Origin: a virus | Taxonomy: Duplodnaviria; Heunggongvirae; Uroviricota; Caudoviricetes | Reading direction: 5' to 3' (one strand) | Virus record (IMG/VR): IMGVR_UViG_2597490083_000002 | DNA length: 57,346 nucleotides | Made by a program: the position numbers and the translations under genes | Notes under the pieces: model-generated | What the model saw: the letters and a program-made list of their open reading frames with translations, nothing else | What the model was told of the DNA's origin: nothing | Database searches by the model: none | Part shown: one piece after another, positions 4,173 through 32,789 of the stretch | How positions within the stretch are numbered: position 1 is the first letter of the stretch | Layout of the letters: the number at the start of each line of letters is the position of its first letter

Positions 4173-5781
4173 ATGCATGGGTTTATCTGGTTTACCTGGT
4201 TCATTAATGGGGGTTCACAAAAGAGCTCAGAGAGAAGGATGGCTCAAGAGAAGAAGAGAAGGAATTAGAGGGGTTGCTTACGAATACCATATATCTTCTC
4301 TTCCTAACATTGCTCGAGCTGAAGTTTTGCTCCAACAAGGAAAATTTAAAACCAGTCAGGGATGTTTTGAAATCGCCCGCCCCACGCTGGAAGCTCATGA
4401 TTATGATCGTGAGGCACTATGGAGCAAATGGGATAAAGCCAGCGATTCCCAGCGCAGCCTGGCTGAAAAATGGTTGCCCTCAATTCAGGCCACAGACGAA
4501 ATGCTGAACCAGGGGATTTCAACGAAAACGGCTTTTGCGACCGTTGCAGGGCATTACCAGGTCAGCGCATCCACTTTGCGGGACAAGTATTACCAGGTAC
4601 AGAAGTTTGCGAAGCCTGACTGGGCGGCTGCACTTGTTGATGGACGTGGAGCATCCCGTCGCAATGTTCACAAAAGTGAATTTGACGAGGATGCCTGGCA
4701 GTTTCTGATTGCAGATTATCTGCGACCGGAAAAACCCGCCTTCCGCAAATGTTATGAGCGTCTGGAACTGGCAGCCCGCGAGCATGGCTGGAGTATTCCC
4801 TCCCGTGCCACGGCCTTTCGCCGGATTCAGCAACTGGACGAGGCAATGGTTGTTGCCTGTCGTGAAGGTGAACATGCACTGATGCATCTGATACCGGCAC
4901 AGCAGCGAACTGTGGAACACCTGGACGCCATGCAGTGGATCAACGGCGACGGTTATCTGCATAACGTCTTTGTACGCTGGTTTAACGGTGATGTGATCCG
5001 TCCGAAAACATGGTTCTGGCAGGATGTGAAAACCCGAAAAATTCTGGGCTGGCGCTGCGATGTGAGCGAGAACATTGATTCAATTCGCCTCTCGTTCATG
5101 GATGTTGTGACTCGCTACAGTATCCCGGAGGATTTTCACATCACCATTGATAACACCCGTGGTGCTGCGAATAAATGGCTGACGGGAGGCGCGCCCAATC
5201 GCTACCGCTTTAAGGTAAAAGAGGACGATCCAAAAGGACTGTTTTTACTGATGGGTGCGAAAATGCACTGGACAAGCGTTGTTGCCGGTAAAGGCTGGGG
5301 CCAGGCAAAACCTGTTGAACGTGCTTTCGGTGTTGGTGGGCTTGAGGAATACGTTGATAAGCATCCGGCACTGGCTGGCGCATATACGGGGCCAAATCCG
5401 CAGGCAAAACCTGATAACTATGGCGACCACGCTGTTGATGCAGAGCTGTTTCTGAAAACCTTTGCCGAAGGTGTGGCGATGTTCAATGCCAGAACAGGCC
5501 GTGAAACAGAAATGTGCGGGGGCAAACTCTCGTTTGATGATGTTTTCGAGCGTGAATACGCCAGAACGATTGTGCGTAAGCCAACCGAAGAACAAAAACG
5601 GATGCTGTTACTGCCTGCCGAGGCGGTGAACGTTTCACGCAAAGGCGAGTTTACGCTTAAAGTTGGCGGCTCCCTTAAAGGCGCGAAAAACGTTTATTAC
5701 AACATGGCATTAATGAATGCCGGAGTGAAAAAAGTTGTGGTCAGATTTGATCCACAGCAGTTACACAGCACGGTTTATTGA
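4147..5781 (+). pseudogene. Mu-type DDE transposase A, truncated at residue 544 by IS600
   Basis: Strong identity to MuA as I recall it, through ...[15 protein letters not shown]; the stop codon TGA is the first 3 nt of the IS600 terminal repeat; C-terminal domain absent. Confidence 0.85.
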
Positions 5782-5842
5782 GATAGCCTGAGTTTAACGG
5801 ACACTCCTTCCTGAAATAGAATGGCATCAGAAGGAGCTAATA

Positions 5843-6145
5843 ATGAGCAGAAAAACCCAACGTTACTCTAAAGAGTTCAAAGCCGAAGCTGTCAGAACGG
5901 TTCTTGAAAATCAACTTTCGATCAGTGAAGGCGCTTCCCGATTATCCCTTCCTGAAGGCACTTTAGGACAATGGGTTACCGCCGCCAGAAAAGGGCTCGG
6001 TACTCCTGGTTCCCGCACGGTGGCTGAACTGGAATCTGAAATTCTGCAACTGCGTAAGGCGTTAAATGAAGCTCGCCTTGAGCGCGATATATTAAAAAAA
6101 GCAACAGCGTATTTTGCACAGGAGTCGCTGAAAAATACGCGTTAA
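5843..6145 (+). CDS. IS600 OrfA
   Basis: 100-aa HTH/leucine-zipper protein; identical copies at 20399..20701(-) and 29973..30275(+). Confidence 0.9.
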   Translation: MSRKTQRYSKEFKAEAVRTVLENQLSISEGASRLSLPEGTLGQWVTAARKGLGTPGSRTVAELESEILQLRKALNEARLERDILKKATAYFAQESLKNTR

Positions 6146-6180
6146 TCGAACAATGGCGACAACAATTTCCCATTGAAGCG

Positions 6181-6999
6181 ATGTGTCAGGTATTTGGTGT
6201 ATCCAGGAGCGGTTATTACAACTGGGTACAGCATGAACCCTCAGACAGAAAACAAAGTGATGAGCGGCTAAAACTGGAGATTAAGGTGGCACATATCCGC
6301 ACTCGCGAAACATATGGAACCCGGCGGCTCCAGACGGAGCTGGCAGAGAATGGCATCATCGTTGGTCGTGACCGACTGGCACGTCTTCGTAAGGAGCTGA
6401 GGCTACGCTGTAAGCAGAAACGCAAGTTCAGAGCGACTACGAACCCGAACCACAATCTGCCAGTTGCGCCAAATCTGCTGAACCAGACGTTCGCTCCTAC
6501 AGCACCAAATCAGGTCTGGGTGGCGGACCTGACGTATGTTGCCACACAGGAGGGATGGTTGTACCTCGCTGGCATCAAAGATGTTTATACGTGCGAAATT
6601 GTCGGCTACGCCATGGGAGAGCGCATGACAAAAGAGCTGACAGGTAAAGCCCTGTTTATGGCGCTCAGGAGCCAGCGCCCACCTGCCGGGCTAATCCACC
6701 ACTCTGATCGAGGTTCACAGTACTGCGCATACGATTACCGGGTCATACAGGAGCAGTCTGGTCTGAAAACATCAATGTCGCGTAAAGGTAACTGTTACGA
6801 CAACGCTCCGATGGAAAGCTTCTGGGGAACGCTGAAAAATGAGAGCCTGAGCCACTATCGTTTTAATAACCGGGATGAAGCCATCTCAGTAATACGGGAA
6901 TACATTGAGATTTTCTACAATCGTCAGCGTCGTCACTCTCGTCTGGGGAATATCTCCCCGGCAGCCTTCAGGGAAAAATATCATCAGATGGCTGCTTAA
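6181..6999 (+). CDS. IS600 OrfB (DDE catalytic domain; normally made as OrfAB by -1 frameshift)
   Basis: 272-aa IS3-family integrase-core ORF; identical copies elsewhere in window. Confidence 0.9.
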   Translation: MCQVFGVSRSGYYNWVQHEPSDRKQSDERLKLEIKVAHIRTRETYGTRRLQTELAENGIIVGRDRLARLRKELRLRCKQKRKFRATTNPNHNLPVAPNLLNQTFAPTAPNQVWVADLTYVATQEGWLYLAGIKDVYTCEIVGYAMGERMTKELTGKALFMALRSQRPPAGLIHHSDRGSQYCAYDYRVIQEQSGLKTSMSRKGNCYDNAPMESFWGTLKNESLSHYRFNNRDEAISVIREYIEIFYNRQRRHSRLGNISPAAFREKYHQMAA

Positions 7000-7042
7000 A
7001 AAAAGAACAAATGGTAGTGTCCGCTATTGCCAGTACACCTCA

Positions 7043-16295: not shown

Positions 16296-16541
16296 CTACC
16301 CCCCAAGGCATTGGATCCTGATGTACTCCTGAAGCATTCTCAATGCTGTCTGGTCGCTGATGATTCCGTCCCGGATACCGAGAACGTTTCGTCCAGCAAC
16401 TGGAGAGAGTTCGACGGTGGCATCATTGCCCATGCCGGAGGCGCTGGAGGTTTCGGCTGAGGATGGCACAGGGCATTTTCCTTTGACGAGCACCCGACCA
16501 CCATTATCAAGCTTGCGCCGAAGAGCATCATTTTCAGCTTT
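16296..16541 (-). pseudogene. Rz i-spanin, C-terminal fragment with embedded Rz1 o-spanin; 5' end removed by IS911
   Basis: ORF 16296..16493 ends ...VLGIRDGIISDQTALRMLQEYIRIQCLGG; overlapping +1-frame ORF has lipobox [17 protein letters not shown] and a proline-rich tract; both run into IS911. Confidence 0.7.
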
Positions 16542-16613
16542 TGAAGTGGCACACTGAATTTGGCCACCTGAACAGAGGTGATATGCTCACCTCAGAACAA
16601 CACAGGTGCTCCA

Positions 16614-17782
<1,169 letters not shown>

Positions 17783-17811
17783 CCACTTCAGTGGCGGTAA
17801 GACGGGGAATA

Positions 17812-18233
17812 TGTTTAACCTGATGTTGACCTCTAAAAAGCTGACAAAAACGGCAATTAACGAGGCGCTCCGGAGGATGAAAAAAGCAGGTCTGAACAAG
17901 TCTGAACTTGAGGCTTTTTTGCGGGATATGATTAACGGTAAGCAAAAGAGCTGGCTGGCGCATTGTACTGATGCAGAGGCGTTATGTATTGATCGGGTCA
18001 TAAGTGAGGTGCTGGCAGAGCATCCAGGATTGATTAGCGTCCTTCGGCAACGGTATGAGGGGCGGGGGATGACCAAATGCAAAATGGCTGAACTGCTGAA
18101 TGATGCACACCCGAAATGGAGTTTAAGAACCTGTGAAAGACGCATTGAGCATTGGCTAAAGGTGGCAGAATTTATTTTGTACAAACCAATGGTTATGGCT
18201 TTTGGTATAGAGAAAAAAGTTATTGCTTTTTGA
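17812..18233 (+). CDS. Putative late-gene antiterminator (Q-position protein), possibly 5'-truncated by IS911
   Basis: Sits directly upstream of the same terminator/tRNA arrangement that follows Q at 26880..27260, but the sequence differs from that Q; start taken at first Met after the IS911 junction. Confidence 0.4.
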
Positions 18234-18422: not shown

Positions 18423-18499
18423 GGCCCTTTAGCTCAGTTGGTCAGAGCGAGCGACTCATAATCGCCAGGTCGCTGGTTCAAGTCCAGCAAGGGCCACCA
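18423..18499 (+). tRNA. tRNA with CAU anticodon (Ile2/Met type, ileZ-like)
   Basis: Hand fold: acceptor GGCCCTT, anticodon loop CUCAUAA, T-loop TTCAAGT, CCA encoded. Confidence 0.8.
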
Positions 18500-18500
18500 A

Positions 18501-18577
18501 CCACCACTAGCTCATCCGGATAGAGCATCAACCTTCTAAGTTGACGGTGCGAGGTTCGAGTCCTCGGTGGTGGGCCA
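18501..18577 (+). tRNA. tRNA-Arg (UCU), argN-like
   Basis: Acceptor CCACCAC/GTGGTGG, anticodon loop CUUCUAA, T-loop TTCGAGT. Confidence 0.85.
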
Positions 18578-18579
18578 GC

Positions 18580-18654
<75 letters not shown>

Positions 18655-18657
18655 TAT

Positions 18658-18732
<75 letters not shown>

Positions 18733-19501: not shown

Positions 19502-19544
19502 TGAGGTGTACTGGCAATAGCGGACACTACCATTTGTTCTTTTT

Positions 19545-20363
19545 TTAAGCAGCCATCTGATGATATTTTTCCCTGAAGGCTGCCGGGGAGATATTCCCCA
19601 GACGAGAGTGACGACGCTGACGATTGTAGAAAATCTCAATGTATTCCCGTATTACTGAGATGGCTTCATCCCGGTTATTAAAACGATAGTGGCTCAGGCT
19701 CTCATTTTTCAGCGTTCCCCAGAAGCTTTCCATCGGAGCGTTGTCGTAACAGTTACCTTTACGCGACATTGATGTTTTCAGACCAGACTGCTCCTGTATG
19801 ACCCGGTAATCGTATGCGCAGTACTGTGAACCTCGATCAGAGTGGTGGATTAGCCCGGCAGGTGGGCGCTGGCTCCTGAGCGCCATAAACAGGGCTTTAC
19901 CTGTCAGCTCTTTTGTCATGCGCTCTCCCATGGCGTAGCCGACAATTTCGCACGTATAAACATCTTTGATGCCAGCGAGGTACAACCATCCCTCCTGTGT
20001 GGCAACATACGTCAGGTCCGCCACCCAGACCTGATTTGGTGCTGTAGGAGCGAACGTCTGGTTCAGCAGATTTGGCGCAACTGGCAGATTGTGGTTCGGG
20101 TTCGTAGTCGCTCTGAACTTGCGTTTCTGCTTACAGCGTAGCCTCAGCTCCTTACGAAGACGTGCCAGTCGGTCACGACCAACGATGATGCCATTCTCTG
20201 CCAGCTCCGTCTGGAGCCGCCGGGTTCCATATGTTTCGCGAGTGCGGATATGTGCCACCTTAATCTCCAGTTTTAGCCGCTCATCACTTTGTTTTCTGTC
20301 TGAGGGTTCATGCTGTACCCAGTTGTAATAACCGCTCCTGGATACACCAAATACCTGACACAT
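19545..20363 (-). CDS. IS600 OrfB
   Basis: Identical 272-aa ORF. Confidence 0.9.
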   Translation of the reverse strand: MCQVFGVSRSGYYNWVQHEPSDRKQSDERLKLEIKVAHIRTRETYGTRRLQTELAENGIIVGRDRLARLRKELRLRCKQKRKFRATTNPNHNLPVAPNLLNQTFAPTAPNQVWVADLTYVATQEGWLYLAGIKDVYTCEIVGYAMGERMTKELTGKALFMALRSQRPPAGLIHHSDRGSQYCAYDYRVIQEQSGLKTSMSRKGNCYDNAPMESFWGTLKNESLSHYRFNNRDEAISVIREYIEIFYNRQRRHSRLGNISPAAFREKYHQMAA

Positions 20364-20398
20364 CGCTTCAATGGGAAATTGTTGTCGCCATTGTTCGA

Positions 20399-20701
20399 TT
20401 AACGCGTATTTTTCAGCGACTCCTGTGCAAAATACGCTGTTGCTTTTTTTAATATATCTCGCTCAAGGCGAGCTTCATTTAACGCCTTACGCAGTTGCAG
20501 AATTTCAGATTCCAGTTCAGCCACCGTGCGGGAACCAGGAGTACCGAGCCCTTTTCTGGCGGCGGTAACCCATTGTCCTAAAGTGCCTTCAGGAAGGGAT
20601 AATCGGGAAGCGCCTTCACTGATCGAAAGTTGATTTTCAAGAACCGTTCTGACAGCTTCGGCTTTGAACTCTTTAGAGTAACGTTGGGTTTTTCTGCTCA
20701 T
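20399..20701 (-). CDS. IS600 OrfA
   Basis: Near-identical 100-aa ORF. Confidence 0.9.
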   Translation of the reverse strand: MSRKTQRYSKEFKAEAVRTVLENQLSISEGASRLSLPEGTLGQWVTAARKGLGTPGSRTVAELESEILQLRKALNEARLERDILKKATAYFAQESLKNTR

Positions 20702-20976
20702 TATTAGCTCCTTCTGATGCCATTCTATTTCAGGAAGGAGTGTCCGTTAAACTCAGGCTACCTCAGTCAGCGCTGGAACGACGAGAAGCCAGAAACCATT
20801 CAACCACAATCCAGACCATCATCCGCAATCACCGTATCGAAAACTGGCTATGTGTTTTTCGACAGGTGAACCATGAAATCAAAAATCAAATCGCTACTGG
20901 TCGCTGGTTATAACCACGGCTGGTTAAGTATTTCGTTTGTCGATTTCTGGTTTAAAAATCTCAATCTGAGGGAATC

Positions 20977-22801
20977 ATGAGGCCAAGTGAACTTAGCGAC
21001 CTGCTTTGGGCGCAGGTTGACAGGGTGGCTCCGCACCTGTTGCCAAACGGCAAGATAGAGGGGCATGAGTGGGTTGCCGGTAACGTCAACGGTGACAAGG
21101 GAAACAGCCTTAAGGTCAACCTTATCGGCAAGAAAAAATGGGCTGATTTCGCTGAGGGAGACGGCGGTGACATGCTTGATTTGTGGATGGCATGTCGTGG
21201 AATTAACCTGCATCAGGCTATGCAGGAAGCGAAAGCATTTCTCGGTATCAAGGATGACGATCACCATTTCGATGCCAGACGTGAGAAGAAATTCTCCAGA
21301 CCTGATCGTAAGAAAATCGCCCGCTACGTTACCAGAACAGAATCCCATCTTGAGTACCTGCAATCGCGTGGCATATCGCCAGAAGTCGTAAAGCGCTACG
21401 AGGTTGTCAGCGGCAAGGTGTGGAATGGAGAACGAGAACTGGATGCTCTGGTGCTTCCGTACAAACGCGATGGTGAGTTGTTGCAGGTCAAGCGAATCAG
21501 CACTGAGCGCCCGGACGGGAAGAAAGTCATTATGGCAGAAGGTGATTGCGAACCTTGCCTGTTCGGATGGCAGGCTCTGGACGCTGGCGTGAGGGTGGTT
21601 GTGCTTTGCGAAGGCGAAATTGATTGTATGAGCTATGCGCAATACGGCATCTCGGCGTTATCCGTGCCGTTTGGTGGCGGGAAAGGCGCTAAGCAACAGT
21701 GGATTGAGTTTGAGTATCACAACCTCGACAGGTTTGAGGAAATATTCATCTCGATGGACGTTGATGATGTTGGTCGTGAAGCCGCAAGGGAAATCGTAAG
21801 CCGACTCGGTGAACATCGTTGCCGTCTTGTTACTCTGCCGTACAAAGACATCAACGAATGCCTGATGAACGGTGTTACCGAGGATGAAATCTGGCAGTAC
21901 ATCGGCACGGCATCCTACTTCGATCCTGAAGAACTCTACAGTGCGCGAGAGTTTTACCAGGACACTATCAACGCTTTCTACGGCAAGCAGCAGTATCTGT
22001 TTAATCCACCGTGGGAATCTCTGGCAGATAAATTCCAGTTCCGTGAGGCAGAGTTGACGCTGGTCAATGGTGTGCACGGTCACGGAAAGGCATGCCCACT
22101 GAATGAGCCTATTCTTTTAGCTGATGGGACATGGACTACTCACGGGAATGTAAAAATTGGCGATCAGGTGGCGTCAGTAGACGGCAATCCGTCAACTGTC
22201 ACTGGGATATTCCCGCAGGGTGTTAGAGATGTTTACCGAGTCACATTTGAAGATGGTCGTTATGTTGATTGCGCAGGCGATCACCTATGGGAGGTCACTA
22301 GTCGTGGATTCACGAAAGGCGAGAAACGCCGCGTGATAGATACCTTCGGGTTGAAGCGGTTGAGTGAAACGAAGAGGCACAAAAATGGCGTTAGGATTCC
22401 TGAAATAACTGGTGACTTTGGCGACCACTCAGAGCCATTAGCATGGGTTATCGGCTCCCTTCTCGGGGATGGTAGTCTTAGCAATGGGAGCGTGAAGTTT
22501 TCAAACGTCGAGCCATACATGATCGAGCGTATGAAGGCTGAACTGCCTGATTACAACTTCTCTGGAGATGGTAAGGACTGGCTGATATCAACGGCGCGTG
22601 GTCAGGTAAATCCACTCATGGAGACCCTGCGAGGTTATGGACTAATGGGGTGCACAGCAAAAAACAAATTCATCCCTCGTGTGTTTTTTTCCGCAAATAA
22701 ATCAACGCGTATAGGCATGCTGTGTGGTCTGCTTGAAACGGATGGGTATGTCGAGAAGGATGGAACGCTTGTTTTTTCCTCAGCAAGTGAAGAACTGCGC
22801 A
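20977..22801 (+). pseudogene. Phage toprim-type DNA primase / P-loop NTPase carrying an intein-like insertion; 3' end removed by IS911
   Basis: Toprim-like acidic motifs (VVVLCEGEIDCMSY, FISMDVDDVG); Walker-A-like GVHGHGK followed from Cys at 22093 by Hint-like and LAGLIDADG-like motifs; ORF continues into IS911 at 22802. Confidence 0.65.
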
Positions 22802-22810
22802 ATGAAGTGG

Positions 22811-23979
<1,169 letters not shown>

Positions 23980-24071
23980 TGGAGCACCTGTGTTGTTCTG
24001 AGGTGAGCATATCACCTCTGTTCAGGTGGCCAAATTCAGTGTGCCACTTCAGACATTCTGAGGTGACAGCG

Positions 24072-24950
24072 ATGATGACGTTTAACCTGCGTGAACAACA
24101 AAAAAGACTACAGGCGCGAATGGATGAGTTACGGGCAGAGATTGCATTTGCTCAGAAGGGCGAAAAGCCATGGCCTTATCGTTCCTGCCTGATGCGTGAA
24201 GGTCGCGGATATTGCGAAAAACATGGCGAATATCACACGCATATACTGGTGTGGAGCGATCGTAATGGCGAGGACAGAGAAGAAATTTCATGCTGCCCTG
24301 ACTGCTTAATCGCTGAGGCCAACGATTTGACCATGGAGCTGTCGTCCATCAAGGCGGAAGAGCTGACTGATAACGCCGGAATTGCCCTGCGTTTTCGGGA
24401 CTGCGAGTTTGATAATTATCTGGAGGTTAATCCTGGCGCAGCCAGAAATCTTGCGGCCTGTCGCCGCTATGCGGAGAACTGGCCAGATATGCTGGAGAAC
24501 GGTACCAGTCTTGTTATGACCGGCAGTTGTGGTACCGGAAAAAATCATCTGGCTGTGGCTATGGCAAAACACATCATCCGTAACTATCTGGCCAGTGTGG
24601 AGATCACCGACGTGATGCGCCTTACCCGTGCTGTGAAAAATTGCTGGCGGAATGACAGCGAAAAAACAGCGGATGAAGTTATTGAGCGTTATGCGTCAAT
24701 GGATTTGCTGATCATCGACGAAGTTGGCGTTCAGTTTGGCAGCGCGGCTGAAATGGCTATTTTGCAGGAAATTATCAACGCCAGGTACGAAAGTATCTTG
24801 CCCACCATTCTGATCAGTAACCTCTCACCGGAAGAGTTGTGGGCGTTCATCAGTCCCCGAATTGCCGACAGGATCACAGACGGGGGACGCAACTGGTTGT
24901 CGTTTAACTGGCCCAGTTACCGTTCTCGTATCAGAGGTGTGGCTGCATGA
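24072..24950 (+). CDS. DnaC/IstB-like helicase-loader ATPase (phage replication protein)
   Basis: Walker A GSCGTGKNHLAVA, Walker B LLIIDEVG; starts MMTFNLREQQ just after IS911; overlaps next gene by 4 nt. Confidence 0.8.
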   Translation: MMTFNLREQQKRLQARMDELRAEIAFAQKGEKPWPYRSCLMREGRGYCEKHGEYHTHILVWSDRNGEDREEISCCPDCLIAEANDLTMELSSIKAEELTDNAGIALRFRDCEFDNYLEVNPGAARNLAACRRYAENWPDMLENGTSLVMTGSCGTGKNHLAVAMAKHIIRNYLASVEITDVMRLTRAVKNCWRNDSEKTADEVIERYASMDLLIIDEVGVQFGSAAEMAILQEIINARYESILPTILISNLSPEELWAFISPRIADRITDGGRNWLSFNWPSYRSRIRGVAA

Positions 24951-26338
24951 CAACTCCAGTATGGCGTAACGATGACCTTGAAGGCGCTGTCATCGGCGCG
25001 TTCTTTCTGCGCGGAGCAGATCCTGAAGTGATGGATATTCTGGCCACACTGCCAGCGGACGTTTTTTCTGTACGAGCGTATCAGGATATCTATACAGGCA
25101 TCTGCAGACAGGCCCGTGTTTCAGGAGTGATTGACCCCGTGCTGTTGTGTAATGAGATGCCGGAACTTGCCCCGGTGATTACTGATACCGGGCGTAAAAC
25201 CTGGGTGAAGTCTTCACTGGAGCACTATGTTGCAGCGTTGCGGCGCAATGCCGCACTGCGCGATGCAGAAAAAACACTGAATGAGGCGCTGCAGAAATTA
25301 CGTGATGCGCATACCTGTGAAGCAGCTGAAGATGCCCTGAAGGATGCGCAGAACATGATGGTCACACTGTCGACAGGAAAGGGCGTCATTCAGCCGGTAC
25401 ATATTGATGATGTGCTTCCGGAAGTGGTTGAGCGTGTTGAATGCCGGAATCAGGGGCTGGAGAAATCCAGGACGTTGATGACCGGTATTGATGAACTGGA
25501 CGCAAAAACAGGCGGTATGGAGCCCGGAGACCTGGTATTCATTGCCGCCCGTCCTTCGATGGGGAAAACCGAACTTGCGCTGGACATCATCGACAAGGTG
25601 ACTGAGCAGGGGCATGGTGTGCTTCTGTTCACCATGGAGATGGCGAACATCCAGATTGGTGAACGTATGGTGTCTGCGGCTGGAGGGATGCCAGTATCAC
25701 GCCTGAAATCTGTGGCTCACTTTGAAGATGAAGACTGGACGCGTTTCTCACAAGGGGTGGGGCGGATGACCGGGCGCAATATCTGGATGGTGGACCAGGC
25801 GAACCTGGCCATTGATGAGATATGCGCAACAACGAAACACCACCTGATTAAATATCCGGAAACGGCGCTGGTGGTGGTTGATTATCTCGGGCTGATAAAA
25901 ACCCGAACCACGGGGCGTCATGACCTTGCCGTGGGTGAAATCTCAAAGGGGCTTAAAGGCCTGGCAAAATCCGGTGGTTTTCCGTTGATTGCGCTGAGCC
26001 AGCTCTCCCGCGGTGTGGAGTCCAGACCCAATAAACGTCCCATGAACTCAGACCTGAAAAATTCCGGAGAAATAGAGGCGGATGCAGACATCATTCTGAT
26101 GCTTTACAGGGATGAAGTGTACAACCCGGATACGCAGGCCAGGGGCATCGCAGAAATCAATATCACGAAACAACGTAACGGTTCTCTGGGAACGATTTAC
26201 CGGCGTTTTTATAACGGACATTTTCTGCCTGTGGACCAGGAAAGTGCACGGGTGCTTTCCACTCCCATGAAGCCCGGCAATCCGCGCAGATACAGTAATA
26301 AACGAACTGACAGCAGTAAGATGGAGCGTTTCTTTTGA
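24947..26338 (+). CDS. DnaB-like replicative helicase (phage)
   Basis: 463 aa; Walker A AARPSMGKTE, RecA-fold motifs (VVVDYLGLI, LSQLSRGVE); no intein in this gene. Confidence 0.85.
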   Translation: MTTPVWRNDDLEGAVIGAFFLRGADPEVMDILATLPADVFSVRAYQDIYTGICRQARVSGVIDPVLLCNEMPELAPVITDTGRKTWVKSSLEHYVAALRRNAALRDAEKTLNEALQKLRDAHTCEAAEDALKDAQNMMVTLSTGKGVIQPVHIDDVLPEVVERVECRNQGLEKSRTLMTGIDELDAKTGGMEPGDLVFIAARPSMGKTELALDIIDKVTEQGHGVLLFTMEMANIQIGERMVSAAGGMPVSRLKSVAHFEDEDWTRFSQGVGRMTGRNIWMVDQANLAIDEICATTKHHLIKYPETALVVVDYLGLIKTRTTGRHDLAVGEISKGLKGLAKSGGFPLIALSQLSRGVESRPNKRPMNSDLKNSGEIEADADIILMLYRDEVYNPDTQARGIAEINITKQRNGSLGTIYRRFYNGHFLPVDQESARVLSTPMKPGNPRRYSNKRTDSSKMERFF

Positions 26339-27459: not shown

Positions 27460-27536
27460 GGCCCTTTAGCTCAGTTGGTCAGAGCGAGCGACTCATAATC
27501 GCCAGGTCGCTGGTTCAAGTCCAGCAAGGGCCACCA
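27460..27536 (+). tRNA. tRNA with CAU anticodon (Ile2/Met type)
   Basis: Identical to 18423..18499. Confidence 0.8.
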
Positions 27537-27537
27537 A

Positions 27538-27614
27538 CCACCACTAGCTCATCCGGATAGAGCATCAACCTTCTAAGTTGACGGTGCGAGGTTCGAGTCC
27601 TCGGTGGTGGGCCA
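27538..27614 (+). tRNA. tRNA-Arg (UCU)
   Basis: Identical to 18501..18577. Confidence 0.85.
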
Positions 27615-27616
27615 GC

Positions 27617-27692
<76 letters not shown>

Positions 27693-27695
27693 TAT

Positions 27696-27770
<75 letters not shown>

Positions 27771-29510: not shown

Positions 29511-29908
29511 GCAGAGTCACCGCGATTATCTCCGCTCTGGTTATCTGCATCATCGTCTGCCTGTCATGGGCTGTTAATCATTACCGTGATAACGCCATTA
29601 CCTACAAAGAGCAGCGCGACAAAAACGCCGGAGAACTGAAGCTGGCGAACGCAACCATTACTGACATGCAGCAGCGCCAGCGTGATGCTGATGCACTCGA
29701 TGCTAAATACACGAAGGAGTTAGCTGATGCGAAAGCTGAAAATGATGCTCTTCGGCGCAAGCTTGATAATGGTGGTCGGGTGCTCGTCAAAGGAAAATGC
29801 CCTGTGCCATCCTCAGCCGAAACCTCCAGCGCCTCCGGCATGGGCAATGATGCCACCGTCGAACTCTCTCCAGTTGCTGGACGAAACGTTCTCGGTATCC
29901 GGGACGGG
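29507..29908 (+). pseudogene. Rz i-spanin, last ~22 codons replaced by IS600
   Basis: ORF 29492..29911 ends ...VLGIRDG then TGA supplied by the IS600 terminus; the other Rz fragment at 16296 shows the missing tail. Confidence 0.8.
29727..29908 (+). pseudogene. Rz1 o-spanin lipoprotein (embedded in Rz), C-terminus altered by IS600
   Basis: [22 protein letters not shown] lipobox, PQPKPPAPP tract; ends ...SGTGEVA* inside IS600. Confidence 0.65.
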
Positions 29909-29972
29909 TGAGGTAGCCTGAGTTTAACGGACACTCCTTCCTGAAATAGAATGGCATCAGAAGGAGCTAATA

Positions 29973-30275
29973 ATGAGCAGAAAAACCCAACGTTACTCTA
30001 AAGAGTTCAAAGCCGAAGCTGTCAGAACGGTTCTTGAAAATCAACTTTCGATCAGTGAAGGCGCTTCCCGATTATCTCTTCCTGAAGGCACTTTAGGACA
30101 ATGGGTTACCGCCGCCAGAAAAGGGCTCGGTACTCCTGGTTCCCGCACGGTGGCTGAACTGGAATCTGAAATTCTGCAACTGCGTAAGGCGTTAAATGAA
30201 GCTCGCCTTGAGCGAGATATATTAAAAAAAGCAACAGCGTATTTTGCACAGGAGTCGCTGAAAAATACGCGTTAA
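29973..30275 (+). CDS. IS600 OrfA
   Basis: Identical 100-aa ORF. Confidence 0.9.
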   Translation: MSRKTQRYSKEFKAEAVRTVLENQLSISEGASRLSLPEGTLGQWVTAARKGLGTPGSRTVAELESEILQLRKALNEARLERDILKKATAYFAQESLKNTR

Positions 30276-30325
30276 TCGAACAATGAACCGCCCCGGGTTT
30301 CCTGGAGAGTGTTTTATCTGTGAAC

Positions 30326-31535: not shown

Positions 31536-31619
31536 CCTGTTTACCTCTTTCTCAGGAAGTTTAGTCTCCAGGATTCCCGGGGCGGTTCACAATGGCGACA
31601 ACAATTTCCCATTGAAGCG

Positions 31620-32438
31620 ATGTGTCAGGTATTTGGTGTATCCAGGAGCGGTTATTACAACTGGGTACAGCATGAACCCTCAGACAGAAAACAAAGTGAT
31701 GAGCGGCTAAAACTGGAGATTAAGGTGGCACATATCCGCACTCGCGAAACATATGGAACCCGGCGGCTCCAGACGGAGCTGGCAGAGAATGGCATCATCG
31801 TTGGTCGTGACCGACTGGCACGTCTTCGTAAGGAGCTGAGGCTACGCTGTAAGCAGAAACGCAAGTTCAGAGCGACTACGAACCCGAACCACAATCTGCC
31901 AGTTGCGCCAAATCTGCTGAACCAGACGTTCGCTCCTACAGCACCAAATCAGGTCTGGGTGGCGGACCTGACGTATGTTGCCACACAGGAGGGATGGTTG
32001 TACCTCGCTGGCATCAAAGATGTTTATACGTGCGAAATTGTCGGCTACGCCATGGGAGAGCGCATGACAAAAGAGCTGACAGGTAAAGCCCTGTTTATGG
32101 CGCTCAGGAGCCAGCGCCCACCTGCCGGGCTAATCCACCACTCTGATCGAGGTTCACAGTACTGCGCATACGATTACCGGGTCATACAGGAGCAGTCTGG
32201 TCTGAAAACATCAATGTCGCGTAAAGGTAACTGTTACGACAACGCTCCGATGGAAAGCTTCTGGGGAACGCTGAAAAATGAGAGCCTGAGCCACTATCGT
32301 TTTAATAACCGGGATGAAGCCATCTCAGTAATACGGGAATACATTGAGATTTTCTACAATCGTCAGCGTCGTCACTCTCGTCTGGGGAATATCTCCCCGG
32401 CAGCCTTCAGGGAAAAATATCATCAGATGGCTGCTTAA
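31620..32438 (+). CDS. IS600 OrfB
   Basis: Identical 272-aa ORF; the upstream extension in ORF 31497..32438 is IS629 end sequence. Confidence 0.85.
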   Translation: MCQVFGVSRSGYYNWVQHEPSDRKQSDERLKLEIKVAHIRTRETYGTRRLQTELAENGIIVGRDRLARLRKELRLRCKQKRKFRATTNPNHNLPVAPNLLNQTFAPTAPNQVWVADLTYVATQEGWLYLAGIKDVYTCEIVGYAMGERMTKELTGKALFMALRSQRPPAGLIHHSDRGSQYCAYDYRVIQEQSGLKTSMSRKGNCYDNAPMESFWGTLKNESLSHYRFNNRDEAISVIREYIEIFYNRQRRHSRLGNISPAAFREKYHQMAA

Positions 32439-32481
32439 AAAAAGAACAAATGGTAGTGTCCGCTATTGCCAGTACACCTCA

Positions 32482-32789
32482 AACTACTCATTGCCAGATG
32501 GGAACTGACCGCAGAACAGGCTGTCGCACAGCAGTTAAAAAATCAGGTGTCAAAAGGAAATCTTATCGATACCGGATTTTGTATTTTTGCCCTTAGTAAG
32601 CTGGCGATGGCTTTATCCAGTACGCTTGACTCCATTCCTTTGTCCATGCAACGACAGTTCCCGGATTTAACGCCGCGTCATATTGATCATCTGAAAATCC
32701 TTATTGCTAAGGGAGCGAATCAGTGCGCGCGTGCGGGGGATAAATTACCGGATTTACTCGATGAATATATCAGAACAACAACTGAGTAA
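32482..32789 (+). pseudogene. nu1: Lambda-type terminase small subunit Nu1, C-terminal fragment only
   Basis: GFCIFALSKLAMALSSTLDSIPLSMQRQFPDLTPRHIDHL...DLLDEYI aligns with the C-terminal half of lambda Nu1; N-terminal DNA-binding half and cos are absent. Confidence 0.75.

Follow-up and report, generated by a model that had tools for sequence, protein, structure and literature searches.

The window (the whole 57,346-nucleotide stretch of DNA that was analysed) contains, on the plus strand at 20977..22836, an open reading frame (ORF) of 619 amino acids that represents the 5' portion of the primase-helicase gene of a lambdoid prophage. In public databases this ORF carries the label "toprim domain-containing protein" or, for S. 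flexneri, "putative bacteriophage protein". Direct reading of the translation shows GVHGHGK, next ACPLNEPILLADGTW, and further on DHLWEV, LAWVIGSLLGDGSL, and LCGLLETDGYVEKDG. The first part of the ORF (20977..22089, plus strand) is the N-extein, which comprises the primase (toprim) domain and the start of a gp4/DnaB-type helicase domain and ends at the Walker A lysine, Lys371, of GVHGHGK. This part can be aligned both with the 968-amino-acid allele of E. coli strain FDAARGOS_944 (L001) and with the 626-amino-acid allele of EPEC E2348/69 (L002), and it matches PHROG 239, "DNA primase/helicase", with an E value of 3.5e-103. The toprim-type motifs that the first-pass annotation had noticed upstream were recovered by Pfam as a Toprim_2 domain at ORF residues 209-296 (E 2.5e-11). 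The layout is that of gp4-type proteins, with Toprim_2 in the window and with AAA_25 and DnaB_C placed by Pfam over residues 355-594 of the intein-free allele. Because AAA_25 and DnaB_C cover this region of the intein-free protein, the insertion site can be assigned to the Walker A loop of a helicase domain of the gp4/DnaB type, located after the toprim primase domain. Of this architecture, nothing beyond the toprim part and the initial half of Walker A is left in the window.

The rest of the gene as it is present here (22090..22802, plus strand) encodes residues 1-238 of a 342-residue intein, including block A (beginning Ala1-Cys2), block B, and most of a LAGLIDADG domain, and this insert is missing in the intein-free allele. 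The last complete intein codon in the window is that of Asn238 (22801-22803). On the 5' side of the ORF, the segment 20766..20976 (plus strand) holds the 3' end of a helix-turn-helix replication gene and an intergenic spacer, and it matches the FDAARGOS_944 sequence from position 5790, which lies in the annotated coding sequence upstream of the primase gene. The left boundary of this 2-kb prophage fragment is formed by IS600 (19502..20765, minus strand), which is 99.8% identical to copies annotated as "IS3-like element IS600 family transposase". On the other side lies a 1,249-bp IS911 (22803..24051, minus strand), 99.1% identical to copies annotated as "IS3-like element IS911 family transposase". 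For the IS911 transposase, the NCBIfam model of the IS3 family gives an E value of 2.7e-88, IS3-family models match IS600 too, and the IS911 termini, TGAAGTGG, are found at both sides of the element. Beyond IS911 are a DnaC-like loader (24072-24950, plus strand; PHROG 50, DnaC-like helicase loader) and a DnaB-like helicase (24947-26338, plus strand; PHROG 19, DnaB-like replicative helicase; Pfam DnaB_C, E 3e-72). Together these two genes (24072..26338) form a replication module that is unrelated to the primase-helicase.

Alleles with and without the insert

The 1,825 bases of the ORF that precede the IS element were used as a query against 5,426 complete E. coli genomes. The primase-helicase gene is present in 295 of these genomes, and the match is full-length through the intein in 79. 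In a spread sample of the remaining genomes, the match breaks off at precisely query base 1112 (window 22088) in 28 rows, one base short of the junction, as would be expected of intein-free alleles. In about 216 E. coli genomes the primase-helicase gene lacks the 342 residues, and its flanks join there as a canonical Walker A motif.

Alignment of the FDAARGOS_944 and E2348/69 alleles shows that they differ by a single block of 342 residues, ACPLNE...YVATHN, between Lys371 and the threonine of GVNGHGK/TEVVGH. At the DNA level, the insert is exactly 1,026 bp long and in frame (GGAAAG/GCATGC...CATAAC/ACCGAG versus GGAAAA/ACGGAG), and the exteins that flank it are 98.9% and 98.7% identical between the two alleles. 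The intein-free site reads GGTCACGGAAAA/ACGGAGGTTGTC, and taking out the 342-codon insert regenerates the Walker A sequence GVNGHGKT. Since the boundary is set by this comparison, the intein extends from Ala372 to Asn713 with Thr at +1, and this Thr after Asn713 is the point of extein resumption that an alignment with intact homologues was expected to reveal. The start is put at Ala372 (GCA, 22090-22092) because only that boundary gives the GVNGHGKT of the intein-free allele. The first-pass annotation had described an intein-like element at 22093-22801 inside a prophage primase/NTPase gene. The exact insertion polymorphism bears out the element, its host gene, and its general position, and the start has to be moved one codon earlier, to 22090. 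Uninterrupted alleles, for which a search of related genomes had been proposed, were also found, both as intact 968-amino-acid genes and as intein-free genes of 626 amino acids.

The intein DNA of the window is 100% identical to that of FDAARGOS_944 over the part encoding residues 1-238. In the N-extein, there are 6 nonsynonymous and 7 synonymous codon differences between the two, including N367H in the Walker A motif. At codon 367 (22075-22077) the window has His, and all three intact alleles compared have Asn (GVNGHGK). Five nonsynonymous changes, of which N367H is one, are private to the window allele, and all five lie in the N-extein.

We also considered the synonymous changes at the junction codons (AAG and ACC around the insert in FDAARGOS_944 versus AAA and ACG in E2348/69) as a mark of homing-site immunity. 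This idea was dropped, as the intein-plus allele of a Klebsiella phage has AAA and the difference is therefore inconsistent.

Endonuclease motifs, splicing blocks, and class of the intein

Judged by its sequence, the 342-residue insert is an intein with a two-motif LAGLIDADG endonuclease, located in the Walker A motif of a prophage primase-helicase. The first LAGLIDADG motif, LAWVIGSLLGDG, can be read directly at 22438..22473 (plus strand; intein residues 117-128). The second motif, IGMLCGLLETDG, lies at 22711..22746 (plus strand; intein residues 208-219), is covered by LAGLIDADG_3, and aligns with the GLIDSDG motif of PI-SceI. Because there are two motifs and each has its acidic residue (Asp127 in LLGDG and Asp218 in LLETDG), the intact element resembles a mobile intein. 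The Hint and LAGLIDADG profile check proposed in the first-pass annotation gave hits for both parts: Hom_end_hint at ORF residues 379-424 with an E value of 3.1e-5 and 24.5 bits, under the Pfam cut-off of 32.1 bits, and LAGLIDADG_3 at ORF residues 579-611 with an E value of 4.3e-5 and 24.1 bits, over the cut-off of 22.5 bits. With the whole insert as input, Pfam reports Hom_end_hint (below the gathering cut-off), LAGLIDADG_3 (35.2 bits), and Hom_end. Among solved structures, the middle (endonuclease) part matches PI-SceI (E 8e-8), and for the splicing domain the best matches are DnaB inteins of mycobacteria, 6rix and 6riy (E 2.3e-9) and also 6bs8. The match to 6rix improves to an E value of 9e-11 once the endonuclease domain is taken out. 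The window copy ends 19 residues past the glycine of the second motif (Gly219), and the second lobe of the endonuclease is missing.

Class 3 inteins are recognised by the lack of a nucleophile at position 1 together with a WCT triplet, in which Trp is residue 12 of block B, Cys is residue 4 of block F, and Thr is residue 5 of block G (PMC2807308, PMC5050341, and, for the triplet, PMC6195587), and their splicing is started by the block F Cys (PMC2807308; PMC5050341). An experimentally studied member is Msm DnaBi1 (6bs8), which resides in the P-loop of DnaB and has Trp67, Cys118, and Thr137 as its WCT triplet (PMC6195587). The "classic" insertion site of P-loop inteins has the invariant Lys on one side and the nucleophilic Thr on the other (PMC5050341). 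Over residues 13-79, the intein studied here can be aligned with 6rix and 6bs8, both DnaB inteins, and the His of block B is part of this alignment. Within block B, His65-Leu66-Trp67 (22282..22290, plus strand) aligns with His65 and Trp67 of Msm DnaBi1, and when the intact intein is used, His65, Trp67, Cys322, and Thr340-His341-Asn342 align to His65, Trp67, Cys118, and Thr137-His-Asn of 6bs8. Position 1 of the intein is Ala1 (GCA, 22090-22092) and holds no Cys, Ser, or Thr nucleophile, and the W of the triplet, at position 12 of block B, corresponds to Trp67 (22288-22290). The intact alleles end in CLCIMVDHPRHLYVTRGYVATHN, which closes with His-Asn and is followed by Thr at +1, and they have Cys322 at block F position 4 and Thr340 at block G position 5. 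The window copy has lost both residues along with the whole of blocks F and G and the +1 position. By these features (Ala1, Trp67, Cys322, Thr340, and Thr+1), which are all that the sequence definition of class 3 asks for, the intact enterobacterial intein belongs to that class, and what the window holds is a fragment of such an intein. Counted against this explanation were the Hom_end_hint score, which is under the Pfam cut-off, and the Ala at block B position 7, versus Thr, Ser, or Asp in the inteins that have been studied.

Alternatively, this could be a standard class 1 intein that starts from Cys373, the first nucleophile, with Ala372 as the last residue of the N-extein. The second position of the insert is indeed a Cys, and a typical block A sequence (CPLNEPILLADG) follows. 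However, excision of Cys373-Asn713 would give GVNGHGKA-TEVV, which is one residue more than the GVNGHGK-TEVV of the intein-free allele, and the Walker A motif would be broken. Moreover, the full WCT triplet occurs together with Ala1, a sister intein with 50% identity begins A-M-A and has no Cys near its start, and the Shigella primase inteins were listed by Tori et al. as being without an N-terminal nucleophile (PMC2807308). A class 1 intein is therefore very unlikely. As the intein starts at Ala372, we assign it to class 3, with Cys322 as the nucleophile, and Cys373 is not regarded as a Cys1 nucleophile.

Intact alleles give a 968-amino-acid precursor in which the P-loop is split, with GVNGHGK before and TEVV after the 342-residue intein. 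By analogy with the class 3 inteins that have been studied, the block F residue Cys322 would attack the peptide bond between Lys371 and Ala372, after which the N-extein would move to the side chain of Thr+1. Cyclisation of Asn342 would then free the intein, and an O-N acyl shift would produce GVNGHGKT in the 626-amino-acid enzyme. The LAGLIDADG endonuclease would probably cleave intein-free alleles and in this way spread the element through gene conversion.

Truncation of the gene and state of the prophage region

Homology to the FDAARGOS_944 allele spans 20766 to 22804 (99.3%) and then ends, which agrees with the earlier claim that the C-terminal splice junction and the C-extein are missing at this locus. 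Comparison with that allele found the remaining 1.08 kb of the primase-helicase gene nowhere in the 57-kb window. IS911 takes the place of intein residues 239-342 and the C-extein, and the tail of the ORF (22804-22836) comes from the IS911 inverted repeat. As the TG at 22803-22804 is common to the gene and the IS911 end, the junction is placed at 22802-22804. The gene had been described as cut by IS911 at 22802; IS911 does adjoin it at this point, but the event was not a simple insertion. This possibility was rejected, as the IS911 at 22803..24051 is flanked by CAA and GAC, without a 3-bp target duplication, and is followed on its right by foreign DNA from a different replication module, which sets in 20 nt ahead of the DnaC-like loader's start codon. 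The unmatched flanks and the origin of the right flank imply that the truncation involved a later deletion or rearrangement, beyond the insertion itself.

A second IS911 copy, inverted and 99.8% identical to the copy at 22803-24051, is found at 16542-17790, where it truncates a Q-like antiterminator gene (17791-18233). Neither of the two copies in the window has a matching 3-bp duplication, the flanks being TTT/GTG and CAA/GAC. An inversion between them was considered and rejected, since these flanks do not pair accordingly and the missing 3' part is neither beside the other IS911 copy nor elsewhere in the window. A cluster of four tRNA genes (Met-CAT, Arg-TCT, Thr-TGT, and Gly-TCC) occurs twice, at 18423-18732 and at 27460-27770, with 98.5% identity. 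Each cluster is downstream of a Q-like antiterminator gene, and they appear to be the remnants of two lambdoid late-regulatory regions. The second, inverted IS911 and the duplicated Q-antiterminator/four-tRNA module suggest that two scrambled lambdoid prophage remnants are present here. Full or partial IS600 copies and other repeats are located at 5779-7042, 19502-20765, 29909-30285, and 31589-32482, and the sequence at 16366-16541, for example, is repeated at 29732-29907. These copies and repeats show that the prophage region has been heavily scrambled by IS elements.

In this S. flexneri-like window, IS600 and IS911 flank a 2-kb piece that includes the N-extein and intein residues 1-238. Because Cys322, Thr340, the His-Asn end, Thr+1, and the helicase core are all missing, the window copy can neither splice nor give a helicase. 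The block F Cys is absolutely required for class 3 splicing (PMC2807308), and by the same analogy a class 3 intein without it would probably be unable to cleave even its N-terminal junction. The view that the gene is dead here was correct, as the window contains neither Cys322 nor the C-terminal splice junction nor the helicase core, and this copy of the primase-helicase is a pseudogene. The changes in the N-extein, N367H among them, fit a decaying pseudogene.

It could be argued that the gene is split rather than dead and that a 3' piece elsewhere in S. flexneri cooperates with the piece found here, for instance as a trans-splicing split intein. A 3' piece of such a primase-helicase gene does exist elsewhere in S. 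flexneri, since a 274-amino-acid ORF (P0003; MVDHPRHLYVTRGYVATHNTEVVGH...) comprises the last 19 intein residues and the complete C-extein. It is present on 194 S. flexneri contigs and the ORF of the window on 262 contigs, and the break falls in the endonuclease domain, which is where natural and engineered split inteins divide. However, P0003 as called starts at Met324, past the essential Cys322, and its private changes of D to G and N to K (AITDLTDNLF), taken together with N367H in the 5' piece, look like decay. In addition, the flanks of neither IS911 copy in the window suit a simple inversion. A pattern specific to P0003 had no match in a metagenome scan. We regard a split gene of this kind as exceedingly improbable. 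It is also very doubtful that the 5' and 3' ORFs may be a functional pair, whether as an IS-generated split intein or with the truncated primase being retained to hamper the replication of incoming lambdoid phages. An ordinary contiguous primase domain, or a non-splicing bacterial intein-like (BIL/Hint) domain, with which the Hom_end_hint score under the Pfam cut-off would agree, is refuted by the canonical Walker A motif at the join in the approximately 216 intein-free E. coli genomes, by the His-Asn end of the insert with Thr after it, and by matches to inteins in the PDB with E values of 1e-9 to 1e-11.

We consider it very probable that the window contains a decayed lambdoid-prophage primase-helicase gene (for protein "P" of the Stx phages Min27 and 24B) whose Walker A loop harboured a mobile class 3 intein. 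A better annotation for the ORF would be a pseudogene in which the N-terminal fragment of a primase-helicase is fused to a truncated class 3 intein.

Occurrence and relation to known inteins

The window is 99.8% identical to S. flexneri SFBU1023 over 8 kb, including the primase-IS911 junction, and this junction was found in none of the complete E. coli genomes searched. The exact 619-amino-acid ORF occurs on 262 Shigella contigs and is recorded under an S. flexneri UniRef entry. The complete intein, with 99.1% amino acid identity to the FDAARGOS_944 copy, is found in phages Min27, 24B, Stx2a_F403, Stx2a_F451, and phiXuzhou21. The P22-like Klebsiella phage phiKp_30 (L006:782-3688) has the same 968-amino-acid primase-helicase, with an intein that is 97.7% identical. 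The phiKp_30 copy indicates that the intein-bearing gene module occurs across enterobacterial genera.

The finding is real and, after the corrections given above, correctly interpreted, yet it is already known. Tori et al. (2010) catalogued "-n Primase" partial inteins of S. flexneri 2a that stop before block F, and they grouped the Shigella primase inteins with those that have no N-terminal nucleophile (PMC2807308). The S. flexneri 2a entries in InBase are named ShP-Sfv-2a-301-n and ShP-Sfv-2a-2457T-n. The fragment in the window corresponds to the object in that catalogue, with agreement in the organism, the gene, the lack of an N-terminal nucleophile, and the place where the sequence is cut off. 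Smith et al. (2012) reported the intact intein in protein P of phage 24B and mentioned a 968-amino-acid orthologue in an S. flexneri prophage (PMC3430580). Beyond correct annotation, the locus has little importance. It shows that mobile inteins occur in the P-loops of phage replication ATPases even in enterobacteria, and it shows how prophages are broken up by IS expansion in Shigella. The intact alleles of E. coli and Stx phages (79 of the 5,426 complete E. coli genomes) would be a convenient candidate class 3 intein; the homing endonuclease seems to be complete, and the host is genetically tractable.

The partial primase inteins of Tori et al. resemble the window copy in organism group, in their prophage primase host, in the absence of an N-terminal Cys, Ser, or Thr, and in the truncation before block F; at the level of these descriptions no difference was detectable. 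Protein P of phages 24B (vB_EcoP_24B) and Min27 is the same 968-amino-acid primase-helicase with the same intein at the same site. The phage genes are unbroken and encode blocks F and G, Thr+1, and the helicase domain, none of which is reached in the window, where the intein breaks off after residue 238. The 24B intein was given as residues 372-702, without a class, in PMC3430580, and our alignment places it at 372-713.

The DnaB intein of mycobacteriophage Bethlehem and Msm DnaBi1 (6bs8) are like the enterobacterial intein in that residue 1 is not a nucleophile, block B contains His65 and Trp67, block F has a Cys at position 4, the end is Thr-His-Asn, and Ser or Thr stands at +1. They likewise follow the Walker A lysine in an ATPase of the DnaB type. 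Identity to these two inteins is low and limited to the splicing blocks. DnaBi1 is a mini-intein, unlike the enterobacterial intein with its complete LAGLIDADG endonuclease; the enterobacterial intein also differs by the Ala at block B position 7 and by its host, a gp4-like primase-helicase of enterobacterial lambdoid phages.

A closer relative is the sister intein of 339 amino acids, which is present in a DnaB-like helicase of phage TL-2011a (L005:1898-4291) and of approximately 49 Stx2a-converting phages. The 50% identity extends over 339-342 amino acids, the class 3 residues A1, HLW, CLC, and THN/T are shared, and the sister intein occupies the same Walker A K/T position as the intein of the primase-helicase. 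The host of the sister intein is different, as it is a DnaB-like helicase with 39.6% identity to the intein-free DnaB-like helicase of the window and about 19% to the primase-helicase. Alignment with the intein-bearing TL-2011a helicase shows that the Walker A site of the DnaB-like helicase in the window (SMGK/TELA, boundary 25567/25568) is empty, which confirms that this adjacent gene has no intein. Compared with a functional pair of the 5' and 3' ORFs, a more modest and better-supported reading is that two sister class 3 inteins aim at the same Walker A K/T position in two non-orthologous lambdoid replicative helicases. Of these, the window holds a dead copy in the primase-helicase and, 2.8 kb away, an empty site in the DnaB-like helicase.
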